From assembly GCA_041391965.1 (NCBI GenBank), contig JAWKMZ010000003.1, positions 68,102-132,101 on the forward strand: DNA of 64,000 bases. Reading direction: 5' to 3'. The position numbers and the translations under genes were made by a program. The notes beneath the pieces are model-generated. The model was not told the DNA's origin. It saw only the letters and a program-made list of their open reading frames with translations, and made no database searches. Positions 9,401 to 46,830 of the stretch are shown in pieces; within the stretch, counting starts at the first letter, position 1, and the number at the start of each line of letters is the position of its first letter. Source of the stretch: Gelidibacter sp. (lineage in GTDB: Bacteria; Bacteroidota; Bacteroidia; Flavobacteriales; Flavobacteriaceae).

Positions 9401-12400
9401 GTTGTATTTACAGCACATGATGATTGTGGTAACACGTCTAAAACATCAGCAACCTTTACAATAGTTGATACAACAGCACCAACTATTACTGATGCTGAAG
9501 ATATGACAGTAGAATGTGATGGACAAGGAAATGTAGAAGCACTTAACGCTTGGTTAGCCAACTATGGTGGAGCCACTGCAGAAGATACGTGTTCAGGTGT
9601 GACTTGGTCAAATAATTTTGAAGCTTTATCTGATGATTGTGGTGCAACTGGTTCAGCAACTGTTGAATTTACAGCAACTGATGATTGTGGTAATTATTCA
9701 AAAACATCAGCTACTTTTACTATTGTGGATACAACTGCACCAACTATTACTGATGCTGAAGACATGACAGTAGAATGTGATGGACAAGGAAATGTAGAAG
9801 CACTTAACGCTTGGTTAGCCAACTATGGTGGAGCTACTGCAGAAGATACGTGTTCAGGTGTGACTTGGTCAAATAATTTTGATGGTTTGTCTGATGATTG
9901 TGGTGCTACAGGTTCAGCAACTGTTGAATTTACAGCAACTGATGATTGTGGTAACTATTCAAAAACATCAGCTACCTTTACTATAGTAGACACTACAGCT
10001 CCAGGATTTGAAGTTGAAGCACAAGATATGACCGTTGAATGTGATGGTCAAGGAAATGCAGATGCTTTAGCAGCTTGGTTGGAAAGTAATGGAGGGGCTT
10101 TAGCTTATGATAATTGTTCTGGTGTTACTTGGACAAATGACTTTACAGCTTTATCCGATGATTGTGGTGCAACAGGTTCAGCAACTGTTGAATTTACAGC
10201 AACCGATGATTGTGGTAACAATTCTAAAACATCAGCCACGTTCACTATAGTAGATACTACAGCACCTACGTTTACCTATGTGCCAGAAAATCTTTTATTA
10301 GAATGTGATGAAACCGCACCTGAAGGTAATGCTACTGCAGGTGATACATGTGGTGATACTTCGGTAACGTATCAAGATTATACAGTTAATACACCTTGGA
10401 CTGCTTTTGAACAAGGAAATGGTACTGTTGATTTTAGTAATTTGCCAAGTGGATTTACCGCAACAGGTTCTAATAACTCAGGTGTAAGTGATTCATATTT
10501 TACTGTAGGTTTAACAACTGTTACCAACGTAACCATTTCTTTTGATTGGAGTTTTTCATCAAATGATACAGGTGGTGTATTTGATCCATTAGTGGTTATT
10601 GTTAATAATCAATATGGTGAATTATATAGTGGAAGTAATTCTACAGCATCAGGATCTTTCTCTCAAAGTTTCCCAGCTGGAACTACTTTTGGAATAGGTA
10701 TTTTGACAGAAGATGATATTTTTGGAAGTGCGAGTGTGGTAATCAGTAATATAAATATTTCGGTTGCACCATACGAATGTCCATTGACAGATGCCTTTAT
10801 ACGTCAATTTACAGCAACAGATGCTTGTGGTAATACATCAATTGCAAATCAGGTGATTGCTTTCCAAGACACTACTGCACCAGTTATTGAGCCTCAAGCT
10901 CAAGACATGACTGTTGAGTGTGATGGACAAGGTAATCAAGCAGCATTAGAGGCATGGTTAGCTTCTAATGGAGGTGCATCAGCAACAGATAATTGTTCTG
11001 AAATTACTTGGTCTAATGACTTTGAAGCCTTATCTGATGATTGTGGTGCAACAGGTTCCGCTACAGTAACGTTTACTGTTACAGATGCTTGTGGAAATGC
11101 TTCTACAACATCAGCAACCTTTACAATAGTTGATACAACAGCACCAACTATTACTGATGCTGAAGATATGACAGTAGAATGTGATGGACAAGGTAATGTA
11201 GAAGCACTTAACGCTTGGTTAGCCAACTATGGTGGAGCCACTGCAGAAGATACGTGTTCAGGTGTGACTTGGTCAAATAATTTTGACGGTTTATCTGATG
11301 ATTGTGGTGCAACTGGTTCAGCAACTGTTGAATTTACAGCAACTGATGATTGTGGTAACCATTCTAAAACATCAGCCACTTTCACTATAGTTGATACAAC
11401 AGCACCAACTATTACTGATGCTGAAGATATGACAGTAGAATGTGATGGGCAAGGTAATGTAGAAGCACTTAACGCTTGGTTAGCCAACAATGGTGGAGCT
11501 ACTGCAGAAGATACGTGTTCAGGTGTGACTTGGTCAAATAATTTTGACGGTTTATCTGATGATTGTGGTGCTACAGGTTCAGCAACCGTTGAATTTACAG
11601 CAACTGATGATTGTGGAAACCATTCTAAAACATCAGCAACCTTTACTATTGTTGATACAACTGCACCAGACATTACAGACGCTGCAGATATGACAGTAGA
11701 ATGTGATGGTCAAGGTAATGTGGAAGCACTTAACGCTTGGTTAGCAAACCATGGAGGTGCAACTGCTGAAGATACGTGTTCAGGTATTACTTGGACTAAT
11801 GACTTCACAGCCTTATCCGATGATTGTGGTGCAACAGGTTCAGCAACCGTTGAATTTACAGCAACCGATGATTGTGGAAATTATTCTAAAACATCAGCTA
11901 CTTTCACTATTGAAGATACAACCTTGCCAGTATTGATTGGTCAATTACCAGTGGGTGAGTCTAATGTAAATGCTTGTTTTGCTAATATGCCTCAAAGTTT
12001 GAGCGAAGCAGAAATGGCAGCATTGTACTCTGATGGTTGTAGTGGTATTGTTGTTACAAAAACATCTGTACCATTAGGTGATGATTGTTCTTGGTCAGTA
12101 TTACACAGATATGTGATTTCTGATGAGTGTGGTAATGAATTGCCTCCAGTGAAAGTATATTTCTGGGGTGGTGATAAAACAGCACCTGCTTTAGTTGATG
12201 GTGCCCAAGTACCACAAGGTCAATTAGACATGGAAGCTTGTTACAATGCAATTCCAGAAGCACCAAGTATTGATGATATTAGAGCTTTATATGCTGATAA
12301 TTGTGGTGGTGACGTAATTGTTACTAGCAAAAACAGTGTTACAGGCGATAATTGTTCATGGGATGCAACCTACACCTATACGATTATGGATGGTTGTGGT

Positions 12401-27561: not shown

Positions 27562-30078
27562 TTAAAAGCTAACTCTGATAAACATATTTGGTGTGACGCC
27601 AAGAGCATTTTGAGTTGTGTGAATGAGCATATTTTCATTCGCATCATAAAAACTATTAATGGTATTTTTAGTGTTTAATACATTCCAAAGGGCAACTCCA
27701 ATTTTTGCATTGATATGATGGCATAATTTTAAATTATATAAAGCCGAGACATCAACGCGCATATAATTTTTTAGCCTACCGCTATTTGCAGATTTATATT
27801 GAACTTCATTATTTATAACAGAATTGGACGCTAAAGGTAATGTTGTTGGTTTGCCTGTTTGCCAGTTTATTCCTGTAGCGATTTTTAATTTTTTTCTTGC
27901 ATAAGTAGTTCCTAAGGTAAGGGCATGAGTAATGTCATAATTGCTTGGAAATTGCTTTTCAGTCAAATCATTAAAGGCGTAAGTGTTGTTCATAAATGCA
28001 TAACTTAACCATATATTGAAAGCATTTATTCGTTTTCTCAACAAAAGGTCAATACCATTAACCTCATAAAATCCATTTGTCTTATTTAATTTATATTGAT
28101 TTTGAAAGCCTTGACTTTGCGTTGTAATACCATCTACCTTTTTATAATAACCTTCTATACTACTAAGCCAACCTTGATGATTATAACTAAAGCCTACTGA
28201 AATTTGCTTGCTCGTAATTATAGGAATATCTTTATTGTTTGATAGTTGCCAACGGTATTTTTCTATACCCAAAAAATCATTTTGAAAATTGACAATTTGT
28301 GAAGTGTATTGATGTTTAAGCTCACCAAGGACCTCAACGGTAAAATAATTTAAAAAACGCTGATTGAAACTTATCCGAGGTTCCCATAGTTGTCTTTTAA
28401 ATTTGTTCAAATAATTAAAGCGCACACCAGCATTAAAATGAGTTTTTTTGTTTAAGGAAATATATTTTATTTCTGAAAAACCACTGTGTGTTCGAATAAC
28501 TTCTGATACGAATAAATGATATAATGGATTATCTACATCATCTAAATTTGTGACTTGTGTTTCAACAAAATGGTAGCCACTCTGCAATTGCAGTGTTTTA
28601 TTAATTCTGTAATTTGCTATTGCCTTTAAACTGGTTTCAGAAACGCTGTTTTTTTGAAGAAAGCGTTGAGAGTCTAATATATTGGCATTAATTGATTTGA
28701 GCGTGTAATCAGTTTCATAGACCTCTAAAGTAGTCTTCCATTGATGATTCCATGTACGATTATAAAAGATACCACCAGCTATACTGTTTTGGCTTAAACT
28801 ACTTCTACGAGATACTTCATTGTTATTGATCATAGCATTTTCATTAAAAAGAAGTTCATTGCCTACATTAATAAAGTTAAGTCGCAACTCATCTTTATCA
28901 CTTATTTGATAATTCCATCGCAATGATGTATCATAAAAATCAAAAGCTTTATCAGAATTGATTATACTATTACCATTGGTTTCAACTTCGGTATTTTGTG
29001 AGATGCGTTCAAAAAACTCATGATAGGTTGGGGTTTTTATAAAATCGCTAATTGATTTTCTTGCAGCTATTTGAACTGATGATTTTTTTCCAACAGGAGT
29101 ATCAACAAAGCCATTGATATCAATAAAATTTGCACCAAGACTTCCATTAAAAATTGTATTTACTACATTGTCAGTTTCCATTGAAATTGTACCAGAAACA
29201 CCATCTGTTTGGCTAACGTCTGAACCATTTTTGCGTAAAGTTACCCTTTGTGTGATTTGTGGATTGTACATAGAGATGAGTCCAAAAAAATGTCCAGATT
29301 GGTACATTTTAATATGATCCCAAAGAATTAGGTTTTGGTCGTGAGATCCACCTCTAATATTAAGGTTAGAAACGGTTTCGTTACTGCTTTGAATGCCAGG
29401 AAATGCTTGTACTGACTGAAGTACATCAGTATCTACTACACCAGGCAAAATATCAAAATTAGAAAAATCTATTTGAAAAGAACCATCACTTAGCTTATTA
29501 ATTCCATTAATGATATAATTAGAAATCATTACTTCTGATAAGGATTGAAAGTTGGGAGTTAAATGTATGGTTGTACAAGTTTTTGAATCAAAATCTGAAT
29601 AGGTTAAAGCTGCTGTTTTATAACCCAAATGTCTGATTGTAACCACTTCTGAAATTGTATTGACCAAAAGCTGGAAAAAGCCGTTTTCATCACTAATTGC
29701 GGTGTTTTCTTGCCCTTGTATAGTAACGAATGCTATAGGTGTATTACTGTCTTTATCTTTTAAATAGCCACAAATTAAAAGCCTTTTGGTTTTAGTGACT
29801 AAAACAAAGTTTTCATTATCAATCACAAAAGTTAGCCCTGTTGCCTTTTCAAGATAGGCGAGTGTTTGATTAAAGGTTAAATCTTTAGAAGGTGGAATTA
29901 TATATAAGTCATCTACGCTGTCTTTTGCATAATTGAATTGGTAATGATATTGATTTTGAATTGTTTCCAAAATGCCAAAAAGCGGTTGCTTTTCTGTTTT
30001 ATTCTGAGCATTTATACCCAAAATAAAAAGGAAAAAGAGAAAGACTGATATTGGATACTGTCTATTCTTTATTGTCAT
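27562..30078 (-). CDS. TonB-dependent outer-membrane receptor of the transducer type (N-terminal signalling extension + carboxypeptidase-regulatory-like domain)
   Basis: 838 aa with a signal peptide. STN-like segment (LTFNQTLAYLEKATGLTFVIDNENFVLV). CarbopepD_reg-like segment (ICGYLKDKDSNTPIAFVTIQGQENTAISDENGFFQL). Plug, then a long beta-barrel ending ...NMFIRVSF (terminal aromatic). Its start overlaps the fecR-like gene by 17 nt. Confidence 0.8.
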   Translation of the reverse strand: MTIKNRQYPISVFLFFLFILGINAQNKTEKQPLFGILETIQNQYHYQFNYAKDSVDDLYIIPPSKDLTFNQTLAYLEKATGLTFVIDNENFVLVTKTKRLLICGYLKDKDSNTPIAFVTIQGQENTAISDENGFFQLLVNTISEVVTIRHLGYKTAALTYSDFDSKTCTTIHLTPNFQSLSEVMISNYIINGINKLSDGSFQIDFSNFDILPGVVDTDVLQSVQAFPGIQSSNETVSNLNIRGGSHDQNLILWDHIKMYQSGHFFGLISMYNPQITQRVTLRKNGSDVSQTDGVSGTISMETDNVVNTIFNGSLGANFIDINGFVDTPVGKKSSVQIAARKSISDFIKTPTYHEFFERISQNTEVETNGNSIINSDKAFDFYDTSLRWNYQISDKDELRLNFINVGNELLFNENAMINNNEVSRRSSLSQNSIAGGIFYNRTWNHQWKTTLEVYETDYTLKSINANILDSQRFLQKNSVSETSLKAIANYRINKTLQLQSGYHFVETQVTNLDDVDNPLYHLFVSEVIRTHSGFSEIKYISLNKKTHFNAGVRFNYLNKFKRQLWEPRISFNQRFLNYFTVEVLGELKHQYTSQIVNFQNDFLGIEKYRWQLSNNKDIPIITSKQISVGFSYNHQGWLSSIEGYYKKVDGITTQSQGFQNQYKLNKTNGFYEVNGIDLLLRKRINAFNIWLSYAFMNNTYAFNDLTEKQFPSNYDITHALTLGTTYARKKLKIATGINWQTGKPTTLPLASNSVINNEVQYKSANSGRLKNYMRVDVSALYNLKLCHHINAKIGVALWNVLNTKNTINSFYDANENMLIHTTQNALGVTPNMFIRVSF

Positions 30079-30973
30079 GTATTACAACTTCATTTGCTTT
30101 ATGGATGTCATAGGTTAAATCCATTGGTTGCGTTACGGATTTTAGAGCACTCTCTAAATCATTATGTGTAAAACCTCCAGTAAATAAACGATTATCTGTT
30201 ACTTTAATAAGCGTTATCTTAATATTATATTGTCGTTCTAATTCATCTAAAACTTCACTTAAAGGAACATTATTAAAAGAGCTTTTGCCGTGAGTCCATT
30301 GAGGATCTACAAATGGTGTTGTGTTTTTTTCTTCCTGATTGTTTATGATTCTATATGTATCTCCTGCATATAACGTATTGGTTGCATGGTTTGTTACAAC
30401 TTTTACAACACCTTCATAACATTGCACTTCATAATAGGCGTTGCGTTGCTTTACATTAAATTGAGTACCAACTACTGTAACCACGCCATCGGAAGTGATG
30501 ACATCAAATGTTTTTCCTTTTTGTACTTTAAAATAAGCTTCGCCATTTAATTTGAGCGTTCTGTGATTGTTCCATGTGTTTTTATTAAAGCTAATTTTAG
30601 TTGAAGCGTTTAATGTTACTAAAGAATTATCAGGAAGCTTAACCGTTGTTGTTTCGTGTGCCAAGGTTTTGACTTCAGTTGTATGCATATTAAAAAAAGT
30701 AAAATAAATTCCTAAAGCTATCACAACAATACTTGCAATACGCATAATAGGAGTTAACCAATTTAATTTTTTTATTGGCTTTTTTCGTGATTCATACATT
30801 GCTTTAAATGTTTCAAAATCTGTTTTGTTTTCAGAATCTGAAACTTTAAAGTAGTTGGCATCATCAACAATGGTCTTATAAAACTCATAGTCCTCTAATT
30901 GCTTAAATGCTTTTTCTTCATCAGCAGTTAGGGCATTGTTCAACCATTGCTTTAATAAGTAATCTTTATCCAT
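30062..30973 (-). CDS. FecR-family transmembrane anti-sigma factor / sensor
   Basis: 303 aa. Cytoplasmic N-domain, single TM (IASIVVIALGIYFTFF), periplasmic FecR block (LPDNSLVTLNASTKISF...GEAYFKV...F.V.T....V.V.GT.FNV). Confidence 0.85.
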   Translation of the reverse strand: MDKDYLLKQWLNNALTADEEKAFKQLEDYEFYKTIVDDANYFKVSDSENKTDFETFKAMYESRKKPIKKLNWLTPIMRIASIVVIALGIYFTFFNMHTTEVKTLAHETTTVKLPDNSLVTLNASTKISFNKNTWNNHRTLKLNGEAYFKVQKGKTFDVITSDGVVTVVGTQFNVKQRNAYYEVQCYEGVVKVVTNHATNTLYAGDTYRIINNQEEKNTTPFVDPQWTHGKSSFNNVPLSEVLDELERQYNIKITLIKVTDNRLFTGGFTHNDLESALKSVTQPMDLTYDIHKANEVVIHDNKE

Positions 30974-31019
30974 TGTGGGTTCTTATTTAATTATATAACA
31001 ACTGTTTTTGTATTTCTCC

Positions 31020-31550
31020 TTATTTTATTTTAAAGGATTGTAGTTCTTTTCTTAAAATATCAAAAGCACTATAAATCCTATATTCCACCACTTTTTGTGT
31101 CACCCCCAAAAATTCAGCAATTTCACTGTGTTTTTTGCCTTCAACTTTACTCAATAAAAAAGCGACACGTTGCTCGTCGGTAAGATGGCTCAATACCTTT
31201 TGATATTTTTCAAAATATTGTTCTTTTTCTAAAAGAAATTCAGGTGTTTCGTTGGTGTAGTTTTTATGCCCTAATTGTTGATGCTTTAGCACTACTTTAT
31301 GGTGTTTAACCTCGTTAAGAGCTAAATTATTAGCAACCGTAAATAAAAAAGACTTTGCTTTGTTTAAAGAGACACTTTTGCAATTGTCCCACAATTTAAT
31401 AAAAGCTTCTTGTACTTTATCTTCAGCATCAAATTGAGCTCCATATTTATAATAAAGAAAATTATGCAAGTCTTTTGCATATTTTTTGTAAACCTGTTCA
31501 AAAACAGAAGTTTCGCAAATGTTTGTATGGAGTTCTTTTGGCAAGTTCAA
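31020..31550 (-). CDS. ECF (group 4) sigma-70 family RNA polymerase sigma factor
   Basis: 176 aa. Region 2 (EDKVQEAFIKLWDN) and region 4 HTH (KKHSEIAEFLGVTQKVVEYRIYSA). Directly upstream of the fecR-like gene. Confidence 0.9.
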   Translation of the reverse strand: MNLPKELHTNICETSVFEQVYKKYAKDLHNFLYYKYGAQFDAEDKVQEAFIKLWDNCKSVSLNKAKSFLFTVANNLALNEVKHHKVVLKHQQLGHKNYTNETPEFLLEKEQYFEKYQKVLSHLTDEQRVAFLLSKVEGKKHSEIAEFLGVTQKVVEYRIYSAFDILRKELQSFKIK

Positions 31551-31646
31551 TTATTTAGTTTTCTAAATATATGTAAATATTTTTTAAATTTTTTTCAGGA
31601 GATTTTTAAAGTAGGTTGTTTTAATATAAACAGCAATGCTAAGTAT

Positions 31647-32723
31647 ATGAAAATTAAGAGCCACCTATTTTTTACATGTTGTATTGTTTTTTCTGTCTTG
31701 TTTACTTCTTGTAGAAAAGAAGAAATAGAATTTAAGCAAGCACCACAAGAAGAAACACTCCAAGCAAATTCAAACATTGCATCTTTAATGCAGCGTACAG
31801 CTATGAATGATGGTTCAGTTGATAATATTATTGATAATTCTAACTGTTTTACAGTGCAACTTCCAGTAACCGTTGTGGCAAATGGTTTAGAAATTACAAT
31901 AAATTCTTTAGACGATTTAGATAGCATTGAAGGTGTTTTTGATGAGTTTGATGACGATACAGATGAGCTCGAAATTAATTTTCCAATTACCATTATATTT
32001 AATGATTTTACATCTACTATTATAACAGACAGCAACCAATTGTATAGCTATTCCATCAATTGTAATGGCGAAAATGAGCCTGATGATGATATTGAATGTG
32101 TCGATTTTGATTATCCTATCTCAGCTTCAATTTTTAATGCCAATGAAGAGCTATTGTACAGTATTACATTAACTTCAGATTATCAACTTTATACTTTTAT
32201 TGACTCCATTGATGTGAATGATTTTGTTACAGTCGATTTTCCGATTACAATATCTCTTTTTGATGGTACACAATTGATAATAAGTGATTTAAACGAATTA
32301 GAAACCACCATTGAGAATTATGTCGATGCTTGCGATGAAGACGATGATAACGATTATACTGATGATGATTGTGACACCTGCACACCACTAGAATTCACTA
32401 ACATTTTGACACAATGTACAGATTGGTCAGTTGACAAGCTTAAACGAAACGATACTGATTATGAAGATTATTACATAGGTTATACCTTCAATTTTATGGC
32501 AAATGGAACCTTAACAGCCCAATACTTAGGAAATACATACCCAGGAACATGGACTACTGAAGGTACAGGCAACAATATTACAGTCACTATAAATATTCCT
32601 TCTTTGCCATACTGCAATAGTGATTACTGGATTTTACATGAAATTGAAACTTATTCAGGTGAAACAAAAATTGATTTAAGAGATAGTAATGATAGATTCA
32701 GGTTGGAAAGTAATTGTAATTAA
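31647..32723 (+). CDS. Highly acidic lipoprotein (358 aa) with four internal repeats and a C-terminal lipocalin-like module
   Basis: Start moved to MKIKSHLFFTCCIVFSVLFTSC (ATG 31647; lipoprotein signal); the ORF-track start at 31410 overlaps the sigma gene on the opposite strand. Contains Asp/Glu-rich linkers (DEFDDDTDE, CDEDDDNDYTDDDCDTC). Confidence 0.6.
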   Translation: MKIKSHLFFTCCIVFSVLFTSCRKEEIEFKQAPQEETLQANSNIASLMQRTAMNDGSVDNIIDNSNCFTVQLPVTVVANGLEITINSLDDLDSIEGVFDEFDDDTDELEINFPITIIFNDFTSTIITDSNQLYSYSINCNGENEPDDDIECVDFDYPISASIFNANEELLYSITLTSDYQLYTFIDSIDVNDFVTVDFPITISLFDGTQLIISDLNELETTIENYVDACDEDDDNDYTDDDCDTCTPLEFTNILTQCTDWSVDKLKRNDTDYEDYYIGYTFNFMANGTLTAQYLGNTYPGTWTTEGTGNNITVTINIPSLPYCNSDYWILHEIETYSGETKIDLRDSNDRFRLESNCN

Positions 32724-32771
32724 ACAAAAAGAACAACATTAAACTTTAAATAAACCTAAAACACACAAATT

Positions 32772-33257
32772 ATGAAAAAAGGATTTTTTTATGCCATGTT
32801 AATTATGTTAAATTTTTCACTAATGTCATCAATGTGCTCCTCTGATGACGATGGTGGTTCAAACAACAATAACAGCCAAGTCATTGCTCAAATAGAAGCA
32901 ACAGCAACTGCTGGCACATGGAAAATAACAAGTTTTATAGATTCAGGTCAAGATGAAACCACTGATTTTGCAGATTATAACTTTACTTTTGGAGCCAATA
33001 ATGTGCTTACTGCCAGCAATGGAAGCACTGAGCTTACAGGTGTTTGGTCAATAACCGATTCTAATAACAGTAGTGATGATAGCAACAATGATGATGATAT
33101 TGATTTTAATATCCTTTTTGCAGTGCCAGATACTAATAATTTTGAAGATTTAAATGACGATTGGGAAATAGTTTCCTATTCCAGCACTAAAATAGAGTTG
33201 ATAGACATCAGTGGAGGAAATGGAGGAACAGATACCTTAACCTTTGAAAAAAACTAA
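32772..33257 (+). CDS. Acidic lipoprotein (161 aa) sharing the C-terminal module of the preceding gene
   Basis: Signal/lipobox ...LMSSMCSSDDDGG. WKITSFIDSGQDETTDFADYNFTFGANNVLTASNGSTELTGVWS aligns by eye with WSVDKLKRNDTDYEDYYIGYTFNFMANGTLTAQYLGNTYPGTWT of the upstream protein. Confidence 0.6.
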   Translation: MKKGFFYAMLIMLNFSLMSSMCSSDDDGGSNNNNSQVIAQIEATATAGTWKITSFIDSGQDETTDFADYNFTFGANNVLTASNGSTELTGVWSITDSNNSSDDSNNDDDIDFNILFAVPDTNNFEDLNDDWEIVSYSSTKIELIDISGGNGGTDTLTFEKN

Positions 33258-33348
33258 GCTAGAAATTTAGAAAATTGAAAAAGAAAAATTGATTGGTCAA
33301 ATGCTCTCTCTTTATTAGCCAAAAAACACATTTGACAACTAGCTGAAG

Positions 33349-33383
33349 ACGGCTTCAGCAACTTAAAGTTTGAAGCCGTTTTT
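33349..33383 (+). terminator. Intrinsic terminator after the lipoprotein pair (competes with an upstream hairpin)
   Basis: acggcttca (33349-57) pairs with tgaagccgt (33371-79): 9-bp stem, 13-nt loop, then TTTT(T). The 5' arm can alternatively pair with gctgaag (33342-48). Confidence 0.6.
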
Positions 33384-33432
33384 AAAATTAAAGCCTCAAC
33401 ATAATAAACCTACACATAAAACAAATCTAAGG

Positions 33433-33807
33433 ATGCGTAAATGGATTTTAATAGGATTGTTGGTTATAGCAGGCATTGTGGCTTATAATTACATCTATCA
33501 AGCTCATAGAGATATTAAAAATGAACCTGCTTCGTTCACAGTCTTTGCAAAAGACATAGACAAAGAGTTTGCATTTAACTCAATAAAAGCAGAGCAAAAA
33601 TATTTTAATAAAACCATTGAAATCTCTGGAATAATCTCAACACAAAATGATAAAACACTCACTTTAAACAATGCCGTGTTTTGCCAATTTGAACAGCCCA
33701 TTAAATCTATTAATACTGCTAAAAAACTGACAATAAAAGGACGCTTTATTGGCTATGACGATTTGCTTAAACAAGTCAAATTAGATCAATGTTATATAAT
33801 TAATTAA
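33433..33807 (+). CDS. Membrane-anchored OB-fold (tRNA_anti-like family) protein
   Basis: Start moved to MRKWILIGLLVIAGIVAYNYIY (ATG 33433; N-terminal TM anchor). The pattern F..N...AEQKY.NKTIEISG.I......TL.LNN.V.C.F........KL.IKGR.IGYD is typical of small OB-fold envelope proteins in Bacteroidota. The TTG at 33370 lies inside the terminator stem. Confidence 0.6.
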   Translation: MRKWILIGLLVIAGIVAYNYIYQAHRDIKNEPASFTVFAKDIDKEFAFNSIKAEQKYFNKTIEISGIISTQNDKTLTLNNAVFCQFEQPIKSINTAKKLTIKGRFIGYDDLLKQVKLDQCYIIN

Positions 33808-33827
33808 CCTTAAATAAAATTTGTATT

Positions 33828-34424
33828 ATGAAAAAAACATTACTTCTAATGATGCTTTTTGTAGCATTAAGCATGAATTCGCAAACCACTTACAACCTAA
33901 ATTGGGAGCGTTTTGCAAATGGACCTGAAATGGACATTACCATTGAAATTGGCGATATTGTTGTTTGGACTTGGACCGATGCGTTTCCACATACAGTGCA
34001 AAATGTTGTAGGTAGCTCTGTTGAAACTTTTAATAGTGGTACTCTAACAGGTCTTGGCGAAACCTATTCACATACATTTACTGTTGAGGGGACTAATGAC
34101 TATTTTTGTGGTATTCATGGGGCTGCAAGTATGTCAGGTACCATAACAGTTGTGAATAACTTGAGTGTAGATGATGAAATTTTAAAAAGTTTTAAAATTC
34201 TCAACAATCCAACTAAAAATAGTTTGAATATAGAGTTTTCTCAAAATATTTTTAATGGTCAAGCCATCATTCAAAACCTGTTAGGAAAAGTTGTACTGAC
34301 TCAGGTTATTGACAATGAACAAACACTAATTATAGATGTATCTGCCTTAAATTCAGGATTATATCTCATAACCATCAAAACAGATAATCTTCAGCGTCAA
34401 ACCAAACGTTTTATTAAAAAGTAA
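33828..34424 (+). CDS. Type-1 (blue) copper protein, plastocyanin/pseudoazurin-like, fused to a T9SS type-A C-terminal sorting domain
   Basis: 198 aa with a signal peptide (MKKTLLLMMLFVALSMNSQ). Cupredoxin ligands in canonical spacing: FPHTV (His) and YFCGIHGAASMSG (Cys-x2-His-x4-Met). The C-terminal ~80 aa (FKILNNPTKNSLNIEF...IIQNLLGKVV...SALNSGLYLITIKTDN...KRFIKK) matches the T9SS sorting pattern. Confidence 0.75.
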   Translation: MKKTLLLMMLFVALSMNSQTTYNLNWERFANGPEMDITIEIGDIVVWTWTDAFPHTVQNVVGSSVETFNSGTLTGLGETYSHTFTVEGTNDYFCGIHGAASMSGTITVVNNLSVDDEILKSFKILNNPTKNSLNIEFSQNIFNGQAIIQNLLGKVVLTQVIDNEQTLIIDVSALNSGLYLITIKTDNLQRQTKRFIKK

Positions 34425-34436
34425 CTAAAACAAAAA

Positions 34437-34467
34437 GCTGTTTCGCATGTTGAAGCAGCTTTTTTTT
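34437..34467 (+). terminator. Strong intrinsic-terminator-like hairpin between the cupredoxin and beta-barrel genes
   Basis: gctgtttc-gcatgtt-gaagcagc: 8-bp stem with one G-U, followed by T8 (34460-67). The next ATG (34468) abuts the T-run. Confidence 0.7.
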
Positions 34468-35331
34468 ATGTCTATGAAAATGAATTGTTTAATTATATGT
34501 TGTGCTCTTTTTATGTCGTTATATGCTAATTCGCAAAACGATTTATTAGATGAAATAGATACTGATTCTATTGGCAACCAATATGCTATAGCCACTTTTA
34601 AAGGGTTGAAAGTTGTTAATTTTGAGTCCACAAAGTTAGTCGCAAAAAAGGAATTTACTCTTGTAGTGTCTCACAGGTTTGGAAGTATTGAAAAAGGGTT
34701 TAACAACTTTTTTGGTTTAGATGATGCAGTAACACGATTAAATTTTGTGTATGGTTTGTCAGATGGGTTTAATATCAGCGTTTCGCGTAGCACCTTTCAA
34801 AAAATATATGAATCATCTATAAAATATCGATTGTTGAGGCAAGTTAGCAATGGATTTCCATTCACAGTTGTTGGTTACAATTCTATTCTTTTAAATACTG
34901 CTTTAGAGAAAGATAATTTGCCAAAGTTAAAATTTAAACATCGCTTGGGTTATACGGTTCAGATATTAATATCGAGAAAAATTAACACCAATTGGTCCTT
35001 TGAGATAGCACCAACATTTTTCCATGATAATTATGTGGCAATTGATAATCAAGACAATTCACAATTTGCATTAGGCTTTGGTGGACGATACAAATTGGGC
35101 AAACGTTGGTCATTAAATGCAGATTATGGTTGGCACCTCAATAGGACAAAAGTGTCTCCATTTAGAAATCCTTTATCTATAGGTTTAGATTTAGAAACTG
35201 GAGGACATGTATTTCAAATGCACTTTACCAATGCACAAGCCATGAATACAAATGGGTTTTTAGGTCAGGCTACAGGAAATTGGAGTGATGGCAATATTTA
35301 TTTTGGTTTTAACCTGAGTCGTACTTTTTAA
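34468..35331 (+). CDS. Predicted outer-membrane beta-barrel protein (resembles the DUF5777-type family; recognition from memory only)
   Basis: Signal peptide MSMKMNCLIICCALFMSLYANSQ. Alternating amphipathic strands. TGGHVFQMHFTN block. C-terminal ...YFGFNLSRTF with terminal Phe. The ORF-track ATG 34447 lies in the loop of the preceding hairpin, so I use 34468 (34474 and 34480 also possible). Confidence 0.6.
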   Translation: MSMKMNCLIICCALFMSLYANSQNDLLDEIDTDSIGNQYAIATFKGLKVVNFESTKLVAKKEFTLVVSHRFGSIEKGFNNFFGLDDAVTRLNFVYGLSDGFNISVSRSTFQKIYESSIKYRLLRQVSNGFPFTVVGYNSILLNTALEKDNLPKLKFKHRLGYTVQILISRKINTNWSFEIAPTFFHDNYVAIDNQDNSQFALGFGGRYKLGKRWSLNADYGWHLNRTKVSPFRNPLSIGLDLETGGHVFQMHFTNAQAMNTNGFLGQATGNWSDGNIYFGFNLSRTF

Positions 35332-35340
35332 GTTTTGCAT

Positions 35341-35703
35341 ATGAAAACGATAAATATTTTATTTATAGGTGTAGCTCTAATGAGTATTTCATGCAGCAAT
35401 TCAAGTGAAAGTGATTTAATTGACAACACAGAAATTCCTAATTTGGTAACATATACTTCAGATGTTAAGCCCATCATCAGTAATAATTGTATTTCTTGTC
35501 ATACGAATCCACCAGAAAATGGTGCTCCAATGTCTTTGCTCATGTATAACAATGTAAAAGACGCTATACTAAACAGAGGATTAATAAACAGGATATCATC
35601 TGAAGACTTAGGCTTTTTGATGCCATTTGGAGGTCCAAGATTGCCACAAAATCTTATTGATGTCATAATACAATGGGAAGCTGACGGATTGTTGGAAAAC
35701 TAA
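35341..35703 (+). CDS. Small lipoprotein with a single c-type haem-binding motif (PSCyt1-like)
   Basis: MKTINILFIGVALMSISC (lipoprotein signal). VKPIISNNCISCHTNPPENGAPMSL contains CxxCH. Downstream FLMPFGGPRLP and IIQWEADG resemble planctomycete-type cytochrome c domains. The ORF-track start is TTG 35335; ATG 35341 is preferred. Confidence 0.6.
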   Translation: MKTINILFIGVALMSISCSNSSESDLIDNTEIPNLVTYTSDVKPIISNNCISCHTNPPENGAPMSLLMYNNVKDAILNRGLINRISSEDLGFLMPFGGPRLPQNLIDVIIQWEADGLLEN

Positions 35704-35721
35704 TTTATAAATAATTATATT

Positions 35722-36267
35722 ATGAAAATTGCACTATATTTTTTGTTTCTTGCCTCTGCGACTGTTTTTTCGCAAGCCAAATACATTACTAAATCTGGAC
35801 AGGTAAATTTTGAAGCTTCTGTGCCTTCGTTTGAGGAGGTTGCTGCTAAAAATAATTCTGTTACTGCTATTCTTGATAGTAATACTGGAGAATTTGCTGC
35901 ATTGGCATTTATTAATGCTTTTAAATTTAAAAACGCTCTGATGGAAGAGCATTTTAATGAAAATTATGCTGAATCCCGTATGTATCCAAAGGCTATTTTT
36001 AAAGGTCAAATAGATGATTTTCAGTTTGATAACCTAAGTGGCTCTGAAACTAAAAGAGCAATTACAGGAACACTAACATTTCATGGTGTTACAAAAGCCA
36101 TAAAAACTATTGAAGTAACACTAATACTAAAGGATGGCATTCTATCAATGTCTGGAAAAATGAGTGTATATCCAAAAGACTATAATATTAAAATTCCTAA
36201 AATTGTAGCCAATAAAATAGCCAATAAAGTTACTGTTGAATTTTATTTTGAATTAGTACAACAATAA
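35722..36267 (+). CDS. YceI-family (polyisoprenoid-binding, lipocalin-like) periplasmic protein
   Basis: 181 aa with a signal peptide. SGQVNFEASVPSFEEV..., NALMEEHFNENYAESRMYPKAIFKG and TGTLTFHGVTKAI are the characteristic YceI blocks. Confidence 0.8.
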   Translation: MKIALYFLFLASATVFSQAKYITKSGQVNFEASVPSFEEVAAKNNSVTAILDSNTGEFAALAFINAFKFKNALMEEHFNENYAESRMYPKAIFKGQIDDFQFDNLSGSETKRAITGTLTFHGVTKAIKTIEVTLILKDGILSMSGKMSVYPKDYNIKIPKIVANKIANKVTVEFYFELVQQ

Positions 36268-36336
36268 ATTTACACTCAGTGTTATAATTGTCTTCAAAGC
36301 AGTAATTACTTTAGTTGTATTGAAGATTTTAATTTT

Positions 36337-42420: not shown

Positions 42421-45400
42421 TTGCTGCTTTTCATCATTTTGGTGTTGGTACTCTCTATTCCTGCAGTTCAAACTTATCTTGGCAAAAAAGCTACCAAGCG
42501 TATTAATGACGATTTTGGAACTCATATTTATATTGGTAAAGTGGGTTTACAGTTTAATGGCGATGTAGAACTCAAAAATATTTACATTGAAGATTATAAA
42601 AAAGATACACTCATTGGTATTGATGAACTTAACACTTCTATTTTAAATTTTAAGAATTTGGTCAATAGCAAATTAGCCTTTGGTGATATTGATATTGAAG
42701 GGTTGACGTTTAATATCAGAACTTATAAAGGTGCTGACGAAACCAATTTAGATGTTTTTGTGGCTAAATTTGATGAAGACAATCCAAGGAAACATAAAAG
42801 CGATTTTTTATTATCGTCCAGCGACGTGTCAATTTATGGTGGCACTTTTAGAATGATTGATGATAATAAAGAAACTCCAAAAATTATTGAGTTTAGTAAA
42901 TTAAATCTTAACGCAACCAACTTTTTGATTGATGGAAGTGATGTAAGTGCTCGCATCAACACCTTTGCTTTTAAGGACAGTAGAGGTTTGGAAGTTAAAA
43001 ATATGGTCACCAATTTTGAATATACGTTAGACCACATGAGTTTTAAGGATTTGAGCCTAAAAACTCCCAATTCGATATTAAAAGGCGAGGTTACGTTTAA
43101 ATACAAGCGTGAAGATTTAAAACAGTTTACCGATAAAGTAGAAGTAGTTGCCAATTTTAAAGATTCGGATGTTTTATTGGACGAACTCAATACCTTTTAT
43201 AATGAGTTTGGTGTCAACCAACATGCCAAATTGAGTGTTCATCTTACAGGAACACTTAACAACTTACAGGCTAACAACTTAAAATTGAACACCAATGGAC
43301 AAACTAAAATTTATGGTGACATCAATTTTAAAAACTTATTTAATACCAAAGAAAACAACTTTTCAATGCAAGGTAATTTTGATAATTTGTCCTCAAATTA
43401 TTTTGAATTAAAAGCACTCTTGCCAAATGTTTTGGGCGAATCTATACCAAGTATTTTTTCAAAATTAGGCAGCTTCAAAATTAACGGAACTACCTATATT
43501 ACAGCAACAACCATTGATGCTAATTTGAAGATTAATACAGAGCTTGGTCATATTGACTCTAACCTAAGTATGCAACGTATTGATGACATTGATAATGCAA
43601 GTTATAAAGGAAATGTAGTGTTTGACAGTTTTGATATTGGTCAACTTTTAAATGATCCAATGGTTAAAGAAACCTCGTTTAATGTAGATGTAGATGGAAA
43701 AGGGTTCACTTTAAAAAACCTTAAAACCAATGTACAAGGACAGGTGTTTTCTATAAATTATAACAATTATAATTATCAAGACATTACTATTTCTGGTAAA
43801 CTTGGTAATAATGTGTTTAATGGGTTGTTGGTGTCAAACGATCAAAATTTTAAATTCAAATTTAACGGTTTGGCAGATATGTCAAAAGACATAAAAACCA
43901 TGGATTTTACGGCAGATGTTGCATATGCCAATTTAAGAGCACTCAACTTTATTAAAAAAGACAGCATCTCAGTGTTTAAAGGCAATGTTACCATGTCTAT
44001 GAAAGGGAAAGGTATTGATGATGCTTTTGGTACGTTGAATTTTAAAAACACAACCTATATTAATCAAAATGACGAGTATTATTTTGAAGATTTTGATATA
44101 ACCTCAAAATTTGATGGCAAAAAAAGAGTCATTGAAGTCAACTCGCCAGATATTATTGAAGGAACTGTAAGTGGTATTTTTAAATTTGAAGATATTGGTA
44201 AATTGGTCGAAAATTCAGTTGGTAGTATTTACACCAATTATGTGCCTCATAAAATAGAAACCAATCAATACCTCGATTTTAACTTTACTATTTACAACAA
44301 AATTGTTGAAGTATTTTATCATAAATTAGAATTAGGCGCAAACACCTTTGTAAAAGGACGAATTGAAAGTGACGAAAGTGGATTTAATCTAACTTTCAAA
44401 TCGCCAAAAATAAAACTATTCAATTATTTTGCTAACGACATTCAGGTTAAGATTGACAATAGCAATCCATTGTTTAACACCTATGTTCAAATAGATTCAC
44501 TAAACACCAAATACTATAATGTATCCAAATTTAACCTTATTAATGTGACGGTTAGAGATACACTTTTTATAAAATCGGAATTTAATGGTGGTAAGGCCAA
44601 CAAAGATAATTTTAACCTGAGTTTGTTTTACACTATTGATAAAAACAACAAATCGGTTATTGGGTTTAAAAAATCGGACATTACTTTTAAAGACAACACA
44701 TGGACCATTAATGAAGATAAAAACAGGTTAAACAAGGTGGCTTTTGACCGAGATTTTAAAGAATTTGATATTTCAAACTTATTGATGAGTCATGCTGAAG
44801 AAGAAATTGAACTTTCAGGAACTGTAAGAGATTCAACCTATAAAGACATCAAACTTAATTTTAAAGATGTCGATTTAACCAAAATCACACCAACATTAGA
44901 CAGCATGACTTTTGCAGGAACAGTTAATGGTAAACTGGACATATTGCAGCAAAATGGCATCTATTTACCAAATTCAAAAGTTACTATTGCCAATTTTAAA
45001 TTTAATGAACATCATTTAGGAAACCTCAAAGCAGATGTTGTTGGTAACGAATCGCTAACAAATTACAAGGTCGATTTGTTACTTCAGAATGACAATTTAA
45101 AATCGTTAGACGCAAAGGGCACTATTGATGTGAGCAATGCCAATTCTTATATTGATTTGGATATTGCTTTTGATGAGTTTTTGCTCAATCCATTAAATGT
45201 GTTTGGAAAAGATGTTATTACCAACATAAGAGGTTACACCTCCGGAAACGTAAAAGTTACAGGAAGTCTTAAAAAACCTAATATAAATGGCGATTTAATC
45301 CTTAATAATGCAGGTCTTACCATTCCATATCTCAATGTTGATTATGCTTTTGATTTTGATTCTGAAGTCAAACTTCAAGACCAAAAATTTATTTTTAACG

Positions 45401-46830
45401 ATGTAACTTTAACAGATTCTGAGTATTTCTCAAAAGCTATTTTAAACGGTTATATGAGTCATACTAATTTTTCCGATTGGAAACTTGGCTTGGATATTAC
45501 AACCGATAGACTTTTGGTTTTAAACACCAAAGACTCCGAAGAGTCGTTATATTACGGAACAGCATTTATGAGCGGAAAAGCCAGTATTTATGGACCAACT
45601 GACGAATTGGTTATTAAAGTAGATGGAAGCACAGCACAAGGAACCGTTTTTAAAATTCCGCTAAATGATGTCGAAAGTTTTGGTGACAACTCATACATCC
45701 ATTTTTTGACACCTGAAGAAAAACAAGCACGACTTAAAGGAGAAACCATCACTGAAACTGAAGTTAAAGGACTCAAACTTAAGTTTGATTTGAACGTTGA
45801 TCAAAATGCAGACATAGAAATTGTAATTGACCGAAAATCAGGAAGCACCATTGAAGGTCGTGGCGAAGGAATTTTGCAGTTTGATATTGATACCAACGGA
45901 AAATTTAATATGTATGGCGACTTTACAGTATTTAAAGGAACTTATAATTTTGCCTATGGTGGTTTGATAGAAAAGCAACTTTCAGTAGAACCAGGTGGAA
46001 GTATCCGTTGGGATGGAGATCCACTCAAAGCCCAAATCAATTTAAAAGCCATCTATAAAACAGAGGCAAACCCATCTGTTTTATTAGATAACCCAATTAA
46101 TAGAAGTATTGATGTCAATGTAGAAATTAACCTGACAGGACAGTTAGAACAACCTGATCCAGATTTTAGCTTTACTTTTCCAGGAGTAAGTTCTACCATA
46201 AAATCAGAGTTAGAATATCGATTAGAAACAAAAGAAAGCAGAGCTAACCAAGCCTTGTTTTTGTTAGCAACGGGTTCATTTGCCAGTGATTTAAGTTTGG
46301 GACAACAAGCCTACGGAACCATTGCTGATAGAGTTAATAATTTGTTTAATAATTTGCTATCAAGTGATGACGACAAGTTAAAACTTGGCTTAAATTATGA
46401 AGCAGGAGAAGAAACCACAGATTATAAAACCGACAGCAGATTAGGGTTGACATTAAGCACAAAAATTAGTGATCGTGTACTATTTAATGGTAAAGTAGGT
46501 GTGCCAATTGGAGGCGTTAATGAAACCGTTATAGCTGGTGATGCAGAAATTGAATTATTATTAAATGATGACGGAACACTTTCGGCTAAATTTTTTAACA
46601 GAGAAAATAGCATTCGTAATTTTGGTGAAGAAATTGGCTACACACAAGGTGTTGGTTTGTCATATAATGTAGAATTTGATACCTTTAAAGAATTGCTACA
46701 AATCATCTTTTCTGGAAAAAATAAGAAAACCAAAGAAAACAAGAAGAAACCTAAAGAAGCAAAAAAGGATGAAAATCCACTTCCAGATTATATAAATATG
46801 AAATCAGAATCTGATAAAAAAGGAAATTAA
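42421..46830 (+). CDS. tamB: Translocation and assembly module protein TamB-like (very large envelope-spanning protein)
   Basis: 1,469 aa. N-terminal TM anchor, long beta-rich body, C-terminal DUF490-like region, Lys-rich tail. Divergent from tsaD. Start is TTG 42421; the frame is open back to 42370 without ATG/GTG. Confidence 0.7.
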   Translation: MLLFIILVLVLSIPAVQTYLGKKATKRINDDFGTHIYIGKVGLQFNGDVELKNIYIEDYKKDTLIGIDELNTSILNFKNLVNSKLAFGDIDIEGLTFNIRTYKGADETNLDVFVAKFDEDNPRKHKSDFLLSSSDVSIYGGTFRMIDDNKETPKIIEFSKLNLNATNFLIDGSDVSARINTFAFKDSRGLEVKNMVTNFEYTLDHMSFKDLSLKTPNSILKGEVTFKYKREDLKQFTDKVEVVANFKDSDVLLDELNTFYNEFGVNQHAKLSVHLTGTLNNLQANNLKLNTNGQTKIYGDINFKNLFNTKENNFSMQGNFDNLSSNYFELKALLPNVLGESIPSIFSKLGSFKINGTTYITATTIDANLKINTELGHIDSNLSMQRIDDIDNASYKGNVVFDSFDIGQLLNDPMVKETSFNVDVDGKGFTLKNLKTNVQGQVFSINYNNYNYQDITISGKLGNNVFNGLLVSNDQNFKFKFNGLADMSKDIKTMDFTADVAYANLRALNFIKKDSISVFKGNVTMSMKGKGIDDAFGTLNFKNTTYINQNDEYYFEDFDITSKFDGKKRVIEVNSPDIIEGTVSGIFKFEDIGKLVENSVGSIYTNYVPHKIETNQYLDFNFTIYNKIVEVFYHKLELGANTFVKGRIESDESGFNLTFKSPKIKLFNYFANDIQVKIDNSNPLFNTYVQIDSLNTKYYNVSKFNLINVTVRDTLFIKSEFNGGKANKDNFNLSLFYTIDKNNKSVIGFKKSDITFKDNTWTINEDKNRLNKVAFDRDFKEFDISNLLMSHAEEEIELSGTVRDSTYKDIKLNFKDVDLTKITPTLDSMTFAGTVNGKLDILQQNGIYLPNSKVTIANFKFNEHHLGNLKADVVGNESLTNYKVDLLLQNDNLKSLDAKGTIDVSNANSYIDLDIAFDEFLLNPLNVFGKDVITNIRGYTSGNVKVTGSLKKPNINGDLILNNAGLTIPYLNVDYAFDFDSEVKLQDQKFIFNDVTLTDSEYFSKAILNGYMSHTNFSDWKLGLDITTDRLLVLNTKDSEESLYYGTAFMSGKASIYGPTDELVIKVDGSTAQGTVFKIPLNDVESFGDNSYIHFLTPEEKQARLKGETITETEVKGLKLKFDLNVDQNADIEIVIDRKSGSTIEGRGEGILQFDIDTNGKFNMYGDFTVFKGTYNFAYGGLIEKQLSVEPGGSIRWDGDPLKAQINLKAIYKTEANPSVLLDNPINRSIDVNVEINLTGQLEQPDPDFSFTFPGVSSTIKSELEYRLETKESRANQALFLLATGSFASDLSLGQQAYGTIADRVNNLFNNLLSSDDDKLKLGLNYEAGEETTDYKTDSRLGLTLSTKISDRVLFNGKVGVPIGGVNETVIAGDAEIELLLNDDGTLSAKFFNRENSIRNFGEEIGYTQGVGLSYNVEFDTFKELLQIIFSGKNKKTKENKKKPKEAKKDENPLPDYINMKSESDKKGN

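Follow-up and report, generated by a model that had tools for sequence, protein, structure and literature searches.

A four-gene outer-envelope module around a DUF5777 barrel in Gelidibacter sp.: a candidate lipocalin-cytochrome redox system with an accessory cupredoxin

Five short genes follow one another on the forward strand of a 64,000-nucleotide stretch of Gelidibacter sp. DNA (contig JAWKMZ010000003.1; hereafter the window). The question that this locus raises is whether the five form one system, and what such a system would do. A sequence-only reading had regarded them as an outer-envelope redox or copper module, made up of an OB-fold protein, a cupredoxin exported by the type IX secretion system (T9SS), an outer-membrane barrel, a haem lipoprotein and a YceI protein. 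The outer membrane is without an energy source, and its redox balance in Gram-negative bacteria is largely unexplained, especially in the abundant Bacteroidota of sea and soil. Four of the genes, encoding the OB-fold protein, the DUF5777 barrel, the small cytochrome and YceI, almost certainly constitute a conserved outer-envelope module, to which the cupredoxin is an accessory. The proposal is an envelope redox system of the lipocalin-cytochrome kind, whose cytochrome is a c-type lipoprotein; the outer-membrane barrel is obligatory, an OB-fold protein would be the anchor, and T9SS cargo is optional. Composition and redox mechanism taken together are given a probability of about 0.5.

A core of four genes

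The layout of the locus is as first described, with five open reading frames (ORFs) on the same strand (Table 1), all with export signals and separated by gaps of 20, 43, 9 and 18 nt. Domains were assigned by profile searches of Pfam and NCBIfam at curated cut-offs, and the earlier domain calls for all five proteins proved correct. The OB-fold protein (PF12869), the cupredoxin (PF00127) with its T9SS C-terminal domain (CTD; PF18962 and TIGR04183), the barrel (PF19089) and YceI (PF04264, 45.3 bits against a cut-off of 23.7) are all above cut-off. The barrel matches its family over profile positions 1-247 of 247 and ends in LSRTF, as had been noted. Its start codon may be the ATG at 34468, 34474 or 34480.

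The window proteins were mapped onto GTDB genomes, giving 80 species loci from Flavobacteriaceae. The OB-fold protein adjoins the DUF5777 barrel in 76/76 of these loci, the small CxxCH lipoprotein accompanies it in 76/77 and YceI in 75/76, and the three are arranged around the barrel in one constant order. A diverse barrel profile reached family members 35-42% identical to the window barrel, and their contexts were then read. The order in Panacibacter is OB - PSCyt1 cytochrome - small cytochrome - YceI - tandem barrel - YceI. Two further distant contigs have PSCyt1 cytochrome - small cytochrome - barrel - YceI - OB, and a fourth has small cytochrome - OB - YceI - barrel. A distant metagenomic clade contributed 80 loci, 17 with enough flank to be assessed. 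The cytochrome or cytochromes, YceI and the OB-fold protein all lie around the barrel in 17/17 of them, and a cupredoxin or T9SS CTD in 0/17.

The clustering of these genes is far above chance expectation, and the retention of the four families through at least four gene orders argues for a real functional module. Mere adjacency of unrelated genes, which the sequence-only reading had kept as an alternative, is extremely improbable given near-absolute co-occurrence at ~95 independent loci, drawn from three or more lineages. It is refuted for the four core genes by their co-occurrence in reshuffled orders and is still conceivable for the cupredoxin alone. Neighbourhood conservation, the check proposed at the outset, thus bears out the functional linkage of four of the five genes. 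The fifth, encoding the cupredoxin, turns out to be an interchangeable accessory, present in 33/74 Flavobacteriaceae loci and in none of the assessable distant ones.

No description of DUF5777 or of this gene combination was found in the searchable literature, in agreement with the earlier statement that no characterised system has this composition. The family is large, with at least 1655 clusters at 50% identity in an exhaustive search, and two peptide patterns alone match it in more than 540 GTDB species genomes. With three obligatory partners, it gains a testable functional frame.

The core proteins

The 120-aa lipoprotein is predicted to be a mono-haem c-type cytochrome with His/Met ligation, PSCyt1/PccH-like in kind. 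Its lipobox Cys18, the haem motif C50-x-x-C53-H54, M94-P95 and W112 are invariant in 25 homologues. This upholds the original assignment, though no family threshold is reached (score/cut-off: Haem_bd 16.4/27, Cytochrome_CBB3 16.4/27, PccH 15.7/24.4). The protein has a 100% identical counterpart in a Gelidibacter sp. MAG, which assigns the window to the Flavobacteriaceae. The CxxCH is single, with no other haem motif in the gene, and is retained together with the distal Met-Pro in distant clades too. With hhalign, the window cytochrome aligns end-to-end with the small cytochrome of a distant clade (98% probability, E 2.5e-13) and matches a PSCyt1-positive domain at 68% probability (E 4.7e-5). 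A sequence search of the PDB gave weak matches only, to the hydrazine synthase haem domain and PccH. Similar to PSCyt1 (PF07635) and PccH cytochromes, the protein has the layout N-terminal helix-CxxCH...MP...W. It is a stand-alone lipoprotein, unlike PSCyt1, which stands at the N-terminus of large planctomycete-type proteins.

Distant clades carry extra PSCyt1 cytochrome lipoproteins of two to three domains, above the PSCyt1 threshold. A tandem duplicate of the small CxxCH lipoprotein lies between the cytochrome and YceI genes in 13/75 Flavobacteriaceae loci. These multi-domain forms and duplicates suggest that haem dosage varies around a redox role. Examples of the PSCyt1 lipoproteins of two or three repeats are found at L085 5315-6007, L086 5606-6592 and L088 5459-6454. 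Their upstream repeats contain C-x4-C-H-D (CAKSGCHD, CAISGCHD) in place of CxxCH, each then followed by an MPP motif, and these may be variant haem-attachment sites. The duplicates are those of loci L010, L014, L015, L019, L032, L037, L040, L041, L044, L063, L067, L077 and L081, and the second copy has a Pro/Asp-rich linker past the lipobox.

The YceI protein contains the signature F.F..ALMEEHFNENYMES..YP.A.F.G, which is kept even in distant clades, and is predicted to adopt the polyisoprenoid/quinone-binding fold and to bind a ligand of this type. Crystal structures of YceI proteins hold octaprenyl compounds or ubiquinone-8 (PMC9113575). Sequence searches of the PDB gave no match for the window YceI at E<=0.01 and none for the OB-fold protein. 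YceI genes, which may or may not correspond to the module's copy, are induced in algae-attached Zobellia and in iron-limited Riemerella, at most a hint of oxidative-stress induction. The OB-fold protein has an N-terminal transmembrane segment without a cleavage site, consistent with an inner-membrane anchor and a periplasmic domain. H25-R26, just past this segment, and C84 are invariant. A conserved protein of 71-74 aa (IPHxIRSYHDSAYDGLWQxQxGWGHxEAP) without a signal peptide is encoded 3′ of the OB gene throughout the second clade (L086 8962-9186, L088 9286-9501 and most of L089-L168).

The barrel is 75-94% identical across many genera, which is unusual for an outer-membrane protein. An AlphaFold2 model built on 83 diverse sequences has 12 strands, with a pLDDT of 85.4 and a pTM of 0.79; a run on a shallow alignment gave a pLDDT of 61.5. 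Residues 23-62 form a conserved, well-predicted non-strand segment ahead of the strands. The best Foldseek matches are NanC/KdgM, FapF, OmpG, FadL and COG4313 at a TM-score of about 0.5, with E values of about 1e-6 to 1e-7 for small 12-strand channels and a sequence identity of about 10-12%. The fold search thus returned generic small barrels and no specific functional family. A sequence search of the PDB and an exact-sequence look-up of the window barrel gave no match, and Phenol_MetA_deg matches were sub-threshold. DUF5777 resembles the NanC/KdgM, FapF and COG4313 channels in fold and size. Unlike the small 12-strand porins, it is far more conserved and has its own invariant motifs, SHRFG and ETGGHVFQxHFTN, which are family-wide despite a mean identity of 26%.

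In a strand-phase analysis, the invariant charged or polar residues R70, K119, Q165, K171, R207, K209, D241 and E243 come out as lumen-facing, and conservation extends to the putative external loops. This charged invariant lumen and the unusual conservation of the loops indicate that the barrel would serve a specific ligand or partner and not act as a general pore. An ordinary small porin had been named as the finding that would speak against the five-gene proposal. The barrel is indeed small and, with 12 strands, too small to sheath a cytochrome; its conserved loops and lumen mean that it is not an ordinary porin. The invariant His69, His186 and His247 were considered as one haem or metal site. 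This was rejected, as the same analysis places them in the lipid-facing phase and at different positions around the barrel.

Rare fusions give a further view of the family. In P0329, a Reeler-like domain with a CxxCH (CTECH) is N-terminal to the barrel, an arrangement that speaks for docking between a haem domain and the barrel. A single CxxCH haem domain with a modest-sized outer-membrane barrel also recalls Cyc2 of iron oxidisers, and P0329, alone among the family members, is a true fusion of the two. Cyc2 is a mono-haem domain fused N-terminally to a 16-18-strand porin, whereas the window has separate genes and a 12-strand barrel. No sequence similarity between Cyc2 and the module was found, and YceI and the OB-fold protein are without counterpart there. 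Tandem double barrels of about 590-615 aa occur as P0391 (L085 7001-8773), P0242 and P0392. P0284 consists of a barrel with a C-terminal extension of 230 aa, Lys/Glu-rich plus a part of no recognised kind.

The neighbours of the barrel in fold space invite another explanation, in which an isoprenoid lipid is the substrate of the barrel, as channel or outer-membrane enzyme. YceI would be the periplasmic carrier, the OB-fold protein the inner-membrane end, and the cytochrome an ancillary part that senses or activates. Candidate substrates are quinone, a carotenoid or flexirubin-type pigment, and a lipid A or phospholipid derivative. FadL and the hydrophobic-substrate channel COG4313 are structural neighbours, the sub-threshold Phenol_MetA_deg matches point the same way, and YceI proteins bind polyisoprenoids (PMC9113575). 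The high conservation of the barrel and the lipid-facing phase of its three histidines recall outer-membrane lipid enzymes, and the tandem-barrel fusions suggest a dimer. However, the cytochrome accompanies the barrel as invariably as YceI does (76/77; 17/17), and in other clades it is multiplied and not lost, so that an ancillary role is hard to reconcile with its distribution. Nor is any energy source or inner-membrane transporter encoded, and this handling of a hydrophobic molecule is considered unlikely.

The barrel might instead be an exporter of surface lipoproteins, similar to FapF or Slam, which moves the cytochrome to the surface, where it would work with T9SS proteins. FapF, a 12-strand polypeptide transporter, is among the best structural neighbours, and the genes for barrel and lipoprotein are adjacent. 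The cytochrome also has an invariant acidic stretch past the lipidated Cys, S-E-E/D-D-L-I-D, echoed as C-Y-Y-D-N-E-E in distant clades. The lipoprotein export signal (LES) defined for Bacteroidota spans +2 to +6 after the lipidated Cys, with acidic residues at +3 to +5, as in C-X-K-(D/E)2, SDDDD and SDDFE (PMC5080379). The window cytochrome reads C-S-N-S-S-E-S-D from its lipidated Cys, and its acidic residues at +6 to +8 appear to lie past these positions. A 12-strand pore is unlikely to admit a folded, haem-loaded cytochrome, and YceI and the OB-fold protein are left unexplained, which makes an exporter improbable.

Surface cargo and the proposed redox relay

The accessory protein of 198 aa contains a cupredoxin domain at aa 36-108 (39.2 bits against a cut-off of 21.2, E 1e-9). 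Its T9SS CTD at aa 127-198 is recognised by both PF18962 (41.8 bits against 27, E 1.3e-10) and TIGR04183 (39.9 against 23, E 3e-10). NCBIfam models for amicyanin, plastocyanin and halocyanin match the cupredoxin below their equivalog cut-offs. The FPH and C-x2-H-x4-M motifs reported earlier are present, and the ligands H55, C94, H97 and M102 are conserved in 35/35 orthologues; the C/H/M part of this set served to select the orthologues, H55 lying outside the filter. The protein is therefore predicted to be a type-1 copper protein that binds copper. Elsewhere, a cupredoxin-class T9SS cargo at L075 9856-10491 (-) has lost the second His ligand, H97 (CALNRALM), and its copper site looks degenerate. 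The window also encodes a 2,512-aa T9SS cargo (6473-14011, +) that combines HYR-like with Ig-like domains and carries a Por_Secre_tail at its C-terminus, from which it follows that the organism uses T9SS.

The slot between the OB-fold and barrel genes of the Flavobacteriaceae loci holds a cupredoxin with CTD in 28 cases and another CTD-ending protein in about 31, and is empty in 17. Cargo also occurs as a convergent array directly downstream of YceI. A census of 74 long Flavobacteriaceae loci, with cargo counted beside the module in either position, gave the cupredoxin class in about 45%, LTD-like in 27/74, a ~290-aa 'QVDDFEDGT' class in 12/74, DOMON in 6/74, a 'TIW' class in 3/74 and none of these five in 12/74. 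Within -2.3 to +4.6 kb of the barrel there are 90 CTD-bearing ORFs; the other 727 kb of flanking sequence have 4. Cargo genes are thus ~30-fold enriched beside the module, as measured with a CTD profile trained on local CTDs and among loci that are phylogenetically related. In Flavobacteriaceae the module is persistently accompanied by a guild of small surface proteins exported by T9SS, none of which is individually required. Since cupredoxin and DOMON are classical redox domains and cargo is so enriched, a functional link of the module to surface redox proteins is possible. If true, it would be the first extracellular redox use of T9SS. In Aestuariibaculum sediminum, the gene for a signal-peptide-bearing ankyrin-repeat protein lies between the OB and DOMON-CTD genes (L067 6684-7205).

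The sequence-only reading had seen in this locus the logic of a trans-outer-membrane conduit of the MtrCAB type. Electrons would pass from the haem lipoprotein, through or along the barrel, to the T9SS-exported cupredoxin or DOMON protein, and YceI would feed in electrons derived from quinol. As in MtrCAB and PioAB, genes for a periplasm-side haem protein, an outer-membrane barrel and a redox protein of the surface lie together. The fully conserved copper ligands alongside a valid T9SS CTD are in keeping with this, as is the alternation of DOMON, an extracellular redox domain, in the cupredoxin's slot. The enrichment of cargo, with linkage kept in two orientations, the conserved external loops and the Reeler-CxxCH fusion also accord with it.

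Membership of the MtrCAB class fails, however, because the barrel is 12-stranded and the cytochrome mono-haem. The barrel of MtrCAB has about 26 strands, and one of 12 is too small to enclose a cytochrome. The module has one haem in place of 10 + 10, and no demonstrated cofactor site in the barrel by which some 30-40 Å could be spanned. At the surface there would be a T9SS-exported copper protein where MtrCAB has a multihaem lipoprotein exported by the type II secretion system, and this partner is dispensable in most of the family. The core occurs without an adjacent surface protein in 12/74 Flavobacteriaceae and 17/17 distant loci, the commonest alternative cargo is not a known redox domain, and a hairpin lies between the cupredoxin and barrel genes. 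The module is not a porin-sheathed multihaem wire, and a conduit that runs on to the cupredoxin is quite unlikely. The module is widespread and uncharacterised, and the attractive picture of an 'MtrCAB with a copper tip' is unsupported as stated.

The cupredoxin had also suggested buffering or detoxification of copper in the envelope. Besides its presence in the window, there is the automatic JGI label 'NlpE involved in copper resistance' on one cytochrome homologue. Across most of the family's range the cupredoxin is missing, its four ligands make an electron-transfer type-1 site and not a chaperone site, and Pfam and NCBIfam gave no CopA/B/C/D, CusF, PCuAC or NlpE match in the core proteins. 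The conserved core being without a copper-handling family, this alternative finds no support and is very improbable.

The preferred reading, a lipocalin-cytochrome redox system, has its model in LcoA-BcnA, which detoxifies lipid peroxyl radicals in the envelope of Burkholderia and other Gram-negative bacteria (PMC9113575). LcoA is a cytochrome b561 and BcnA a YceI lipocalin, and the mutants accumulate membrane lipid peroxidation (PMC9113575). It has been proposed that the cytochrome recycles the lipocalin-bound quinone, which quenches the radicals (PMC9113575). The counterpart in E. coli is the yceJ-yceI gene pair. As in LcoA-BcnA, the gene for a secreted or periplasmic YceI lipocalin is linked to a cytochrome gene, at a spacing of 18 nt in the window. 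By the same proposed logic, a lipocalin-held isoprenoid quinone would mediate between cytochrome and envelope. The link of YceI, quinone and cytochrome drawn in the sequence-only reading thus has an experimental precedent (PMC9113575).

There are also differences. The module cytochrome is a c-type mono-haem lipoprotein with a soluble domain and not an integral-membrane di-haem b561, a family with no Pfam or NCBIfam match among the module proteins. An obligatory DUF5777 barrel and an inner-membrane-anchored OB-fold protein are added, the quinone would be menaquinone, and T9SS surface proteins are recruited in Flavobacteriaceae. LcoA-BcnA, the only characterised system of this kind, is proteobacterial, and the concept would be widened by a Bacteroidota version that includes an outer-membrane component.

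In the mechanism proposed, YceI would ferry an isoprenoid quinone, menaquinone in this phylum, across the periplasm. The haem-c lipoprotein at the outer membrane would exchange electrons with the lipocalin-bound quinone or radical, the barrel would be an outer-membrane docking or lipid-access site, and the OB-fold protein would tether or regulate the assembly from the inner membrane. The net role would be the redox upkeep of the outer membrane, for example the quenching of lipid-derived radicals. In Flavobacteriaceae, electrons might also pass to or from surface-displayed redox proteins such as cupredoxin and DOMON. The ligand, the direction of electron flow, the physical contacts and the physiological role are inferred here, and this lipocalin-mediated relay is put forward tentatively, at somewhat less than even odds.

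Several points weigh against the relay. The module members are known from sequence and models, and the placement of barrel residues from strand-phase analysis. The analogy with BcnA-LcoA consists of one common family, YceI, plus 'a cytochrome'. A c-type haem with His/Met ligation is usually of high potential and would oxidise menaquinone, not reduce it, unlike the role proposed for LcoA. The module encodes no quinol dehydrogenase or other inner-membrane redox protein. At the surface, LTD-like proteins, the commonest cargo other than cupredoxin, are without known redox function, cargo is missing beside the module at the loci counted above, and the hairpin past the cupredoxin gene suggests that this gene may be transcribed apart from barrel, cytochrome and YceI.

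A broader version of the relay extends it to a phylum-wide route of Bacteroidota that would link the respiratory membrane to the outer membrane or surface by the movement of reducing equivalents, without multihaem wires. YceI would bring menaquinone or menaquinol to the 12-strand barrel, where the cytochrome lipoprotein would act. Blue-copper or DOMON proteins displayed by T9SS would complete an extracellular electron exchange in Flavobacteriaceae. This extension is doubtful at present.

Transcription signals and neighbouring genes

The positions of the core genes, the accessory gene and the surrounding features are collected in Table 1.

Table 1. Features of the window at and near the four-gene module.
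Feature	Position	Strand	Basis
Core gene 1, OB-fold protein	33433..33807	+	N-terminal transmembrane segment; PF12869, E 5.6e-9, 36.2 bits
Accessory gene, cupredoxin with T9SS CTD	33828..34424	+	Signal peptide; PF00127, PF18962, TIGR04183
Terminator-like hairpin between cupredoxin and barrel genes	34432..34464	+	14-bp stem, 5-nt loop, T-run
Core gene 2, DUF5777 outer-membrane barrel	34468..35331	+	PF19089, E 1.2e-89, 300 bits
Core gene 3, predicted mono-haem c-type cytochrome lipoprotein	35341..35703	+	Lipobox, CxxCH, Met-Pro
Core gene 4, periplasmic YceI-family lipocalin	35722..36267	+	PF04264, E 1.5e-11
Hairpins between convergent YceI and methyltransferase genes	36272..36327	.	dG -11.9 kcal/mol
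Strong hairpin and T-run after Lp161 gene	33344..33384	+	dG -19.9 kcal/mol
Two lipoproteins, Lp360 (360 aa, 31641-32723) and Lp161 (161 aa, 32772-33257)	31641..33257	+	Non-core neighbouring unit
ECF sigma (31020-31550), FecR anti-sigma (30062-30973) and TonB-dependent receptor (27562-30078) unit	27562..31550	-	Pfam; non-core
ECF-type promoter-like bipartite motif before Lp360	31596..31618	+	CAGGAG-N12-13-(A/G)GTTG

The hairpin between the cupredoxin and barrel genes has a folding free energy (dG) of -15.1 kcal/mol, against -3.5 +/- 2.1 for shuffled sequences, none of 500 being equally stable. It is conserved in the related loci L003 and L004. A comparable stable hairpin lies 3′ of the slot-2 gene in 13/61 related loci, four of them also with a T-rich tail. 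With this hairpin and its T-run, the five genes are not necessarily one transcript in the window. The hairpins past YceI are likely the end of the unit, and the hairpin after Lp161 divides the upstream lipoprotein unit from that running from OB to YceI. A k-mer search upstream of the OB gene found no position-fixed promoter motif. A sigma-70 consensus scan did no better than chance (36 against 29 +/- 6 in shuffles), and there was no TAnnTTTG motif in the three intergenic regions checked.

A 1,469-aa TamB-like protein (PF04357), of a kind that spans the envelope and takes part in lipid or protein transport, is encoded at 42421-46830 (+). Its gene shares the strand of the module at a distance of about 6 kb, with no conserved linkage to it among the other loci.

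The upstream neighbours are an extracytoplasmic function (ECF) sigma factor, a FecR anti-sigma factor and a SusD-less, transducer-like TonB-dependent receptor, followed by two lipoproteins on the opposite strand. The sigma, FecR and receptor genes stand at conserved offsets in 54-58 of 73-76 Flavobacteriaceae loci, and the ECF/lipoprotein arm accompanies the module in about 75% of them; the sigma/FecR/receptor arm was absent from the distant clades examined. Lp360 is found in 57/76 loci and Lp161 in 21/76. Their N-termini, C-R-K-E-E and C-S-S-D-D-D respectively, match the Bacteroidota surface-export signal (LES; PMC5080379). Both contain very acidic Asp/Asn-rich segments and gave no family match in Pfam or NCBIfam. 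Together with the SusD-less transducer, they are possibly an uncharacterised uptake system of surface lipoproteins and a TonB-dependent transporter.

In 39/57 loci the bipartite motif stands on the forward strand, about 60/40 nt before the start of Lp360, and about 33 loci have an inverted copy that faces the ECF sigma gene. About 72 of its 98 matches in 2.5 Mb concentrate in this divergent intergenic region (window 31551-31640 and its equivalent in L005-L084), and none was seen upstream of the OB gene. As the motif does not precede the OB gene and a strong hairpin follows Lp161, the upstream arm is treated as a separate, adjacent ECF regulon. The motif pair looks like an autoregulated ECF promoter and one target promoter.

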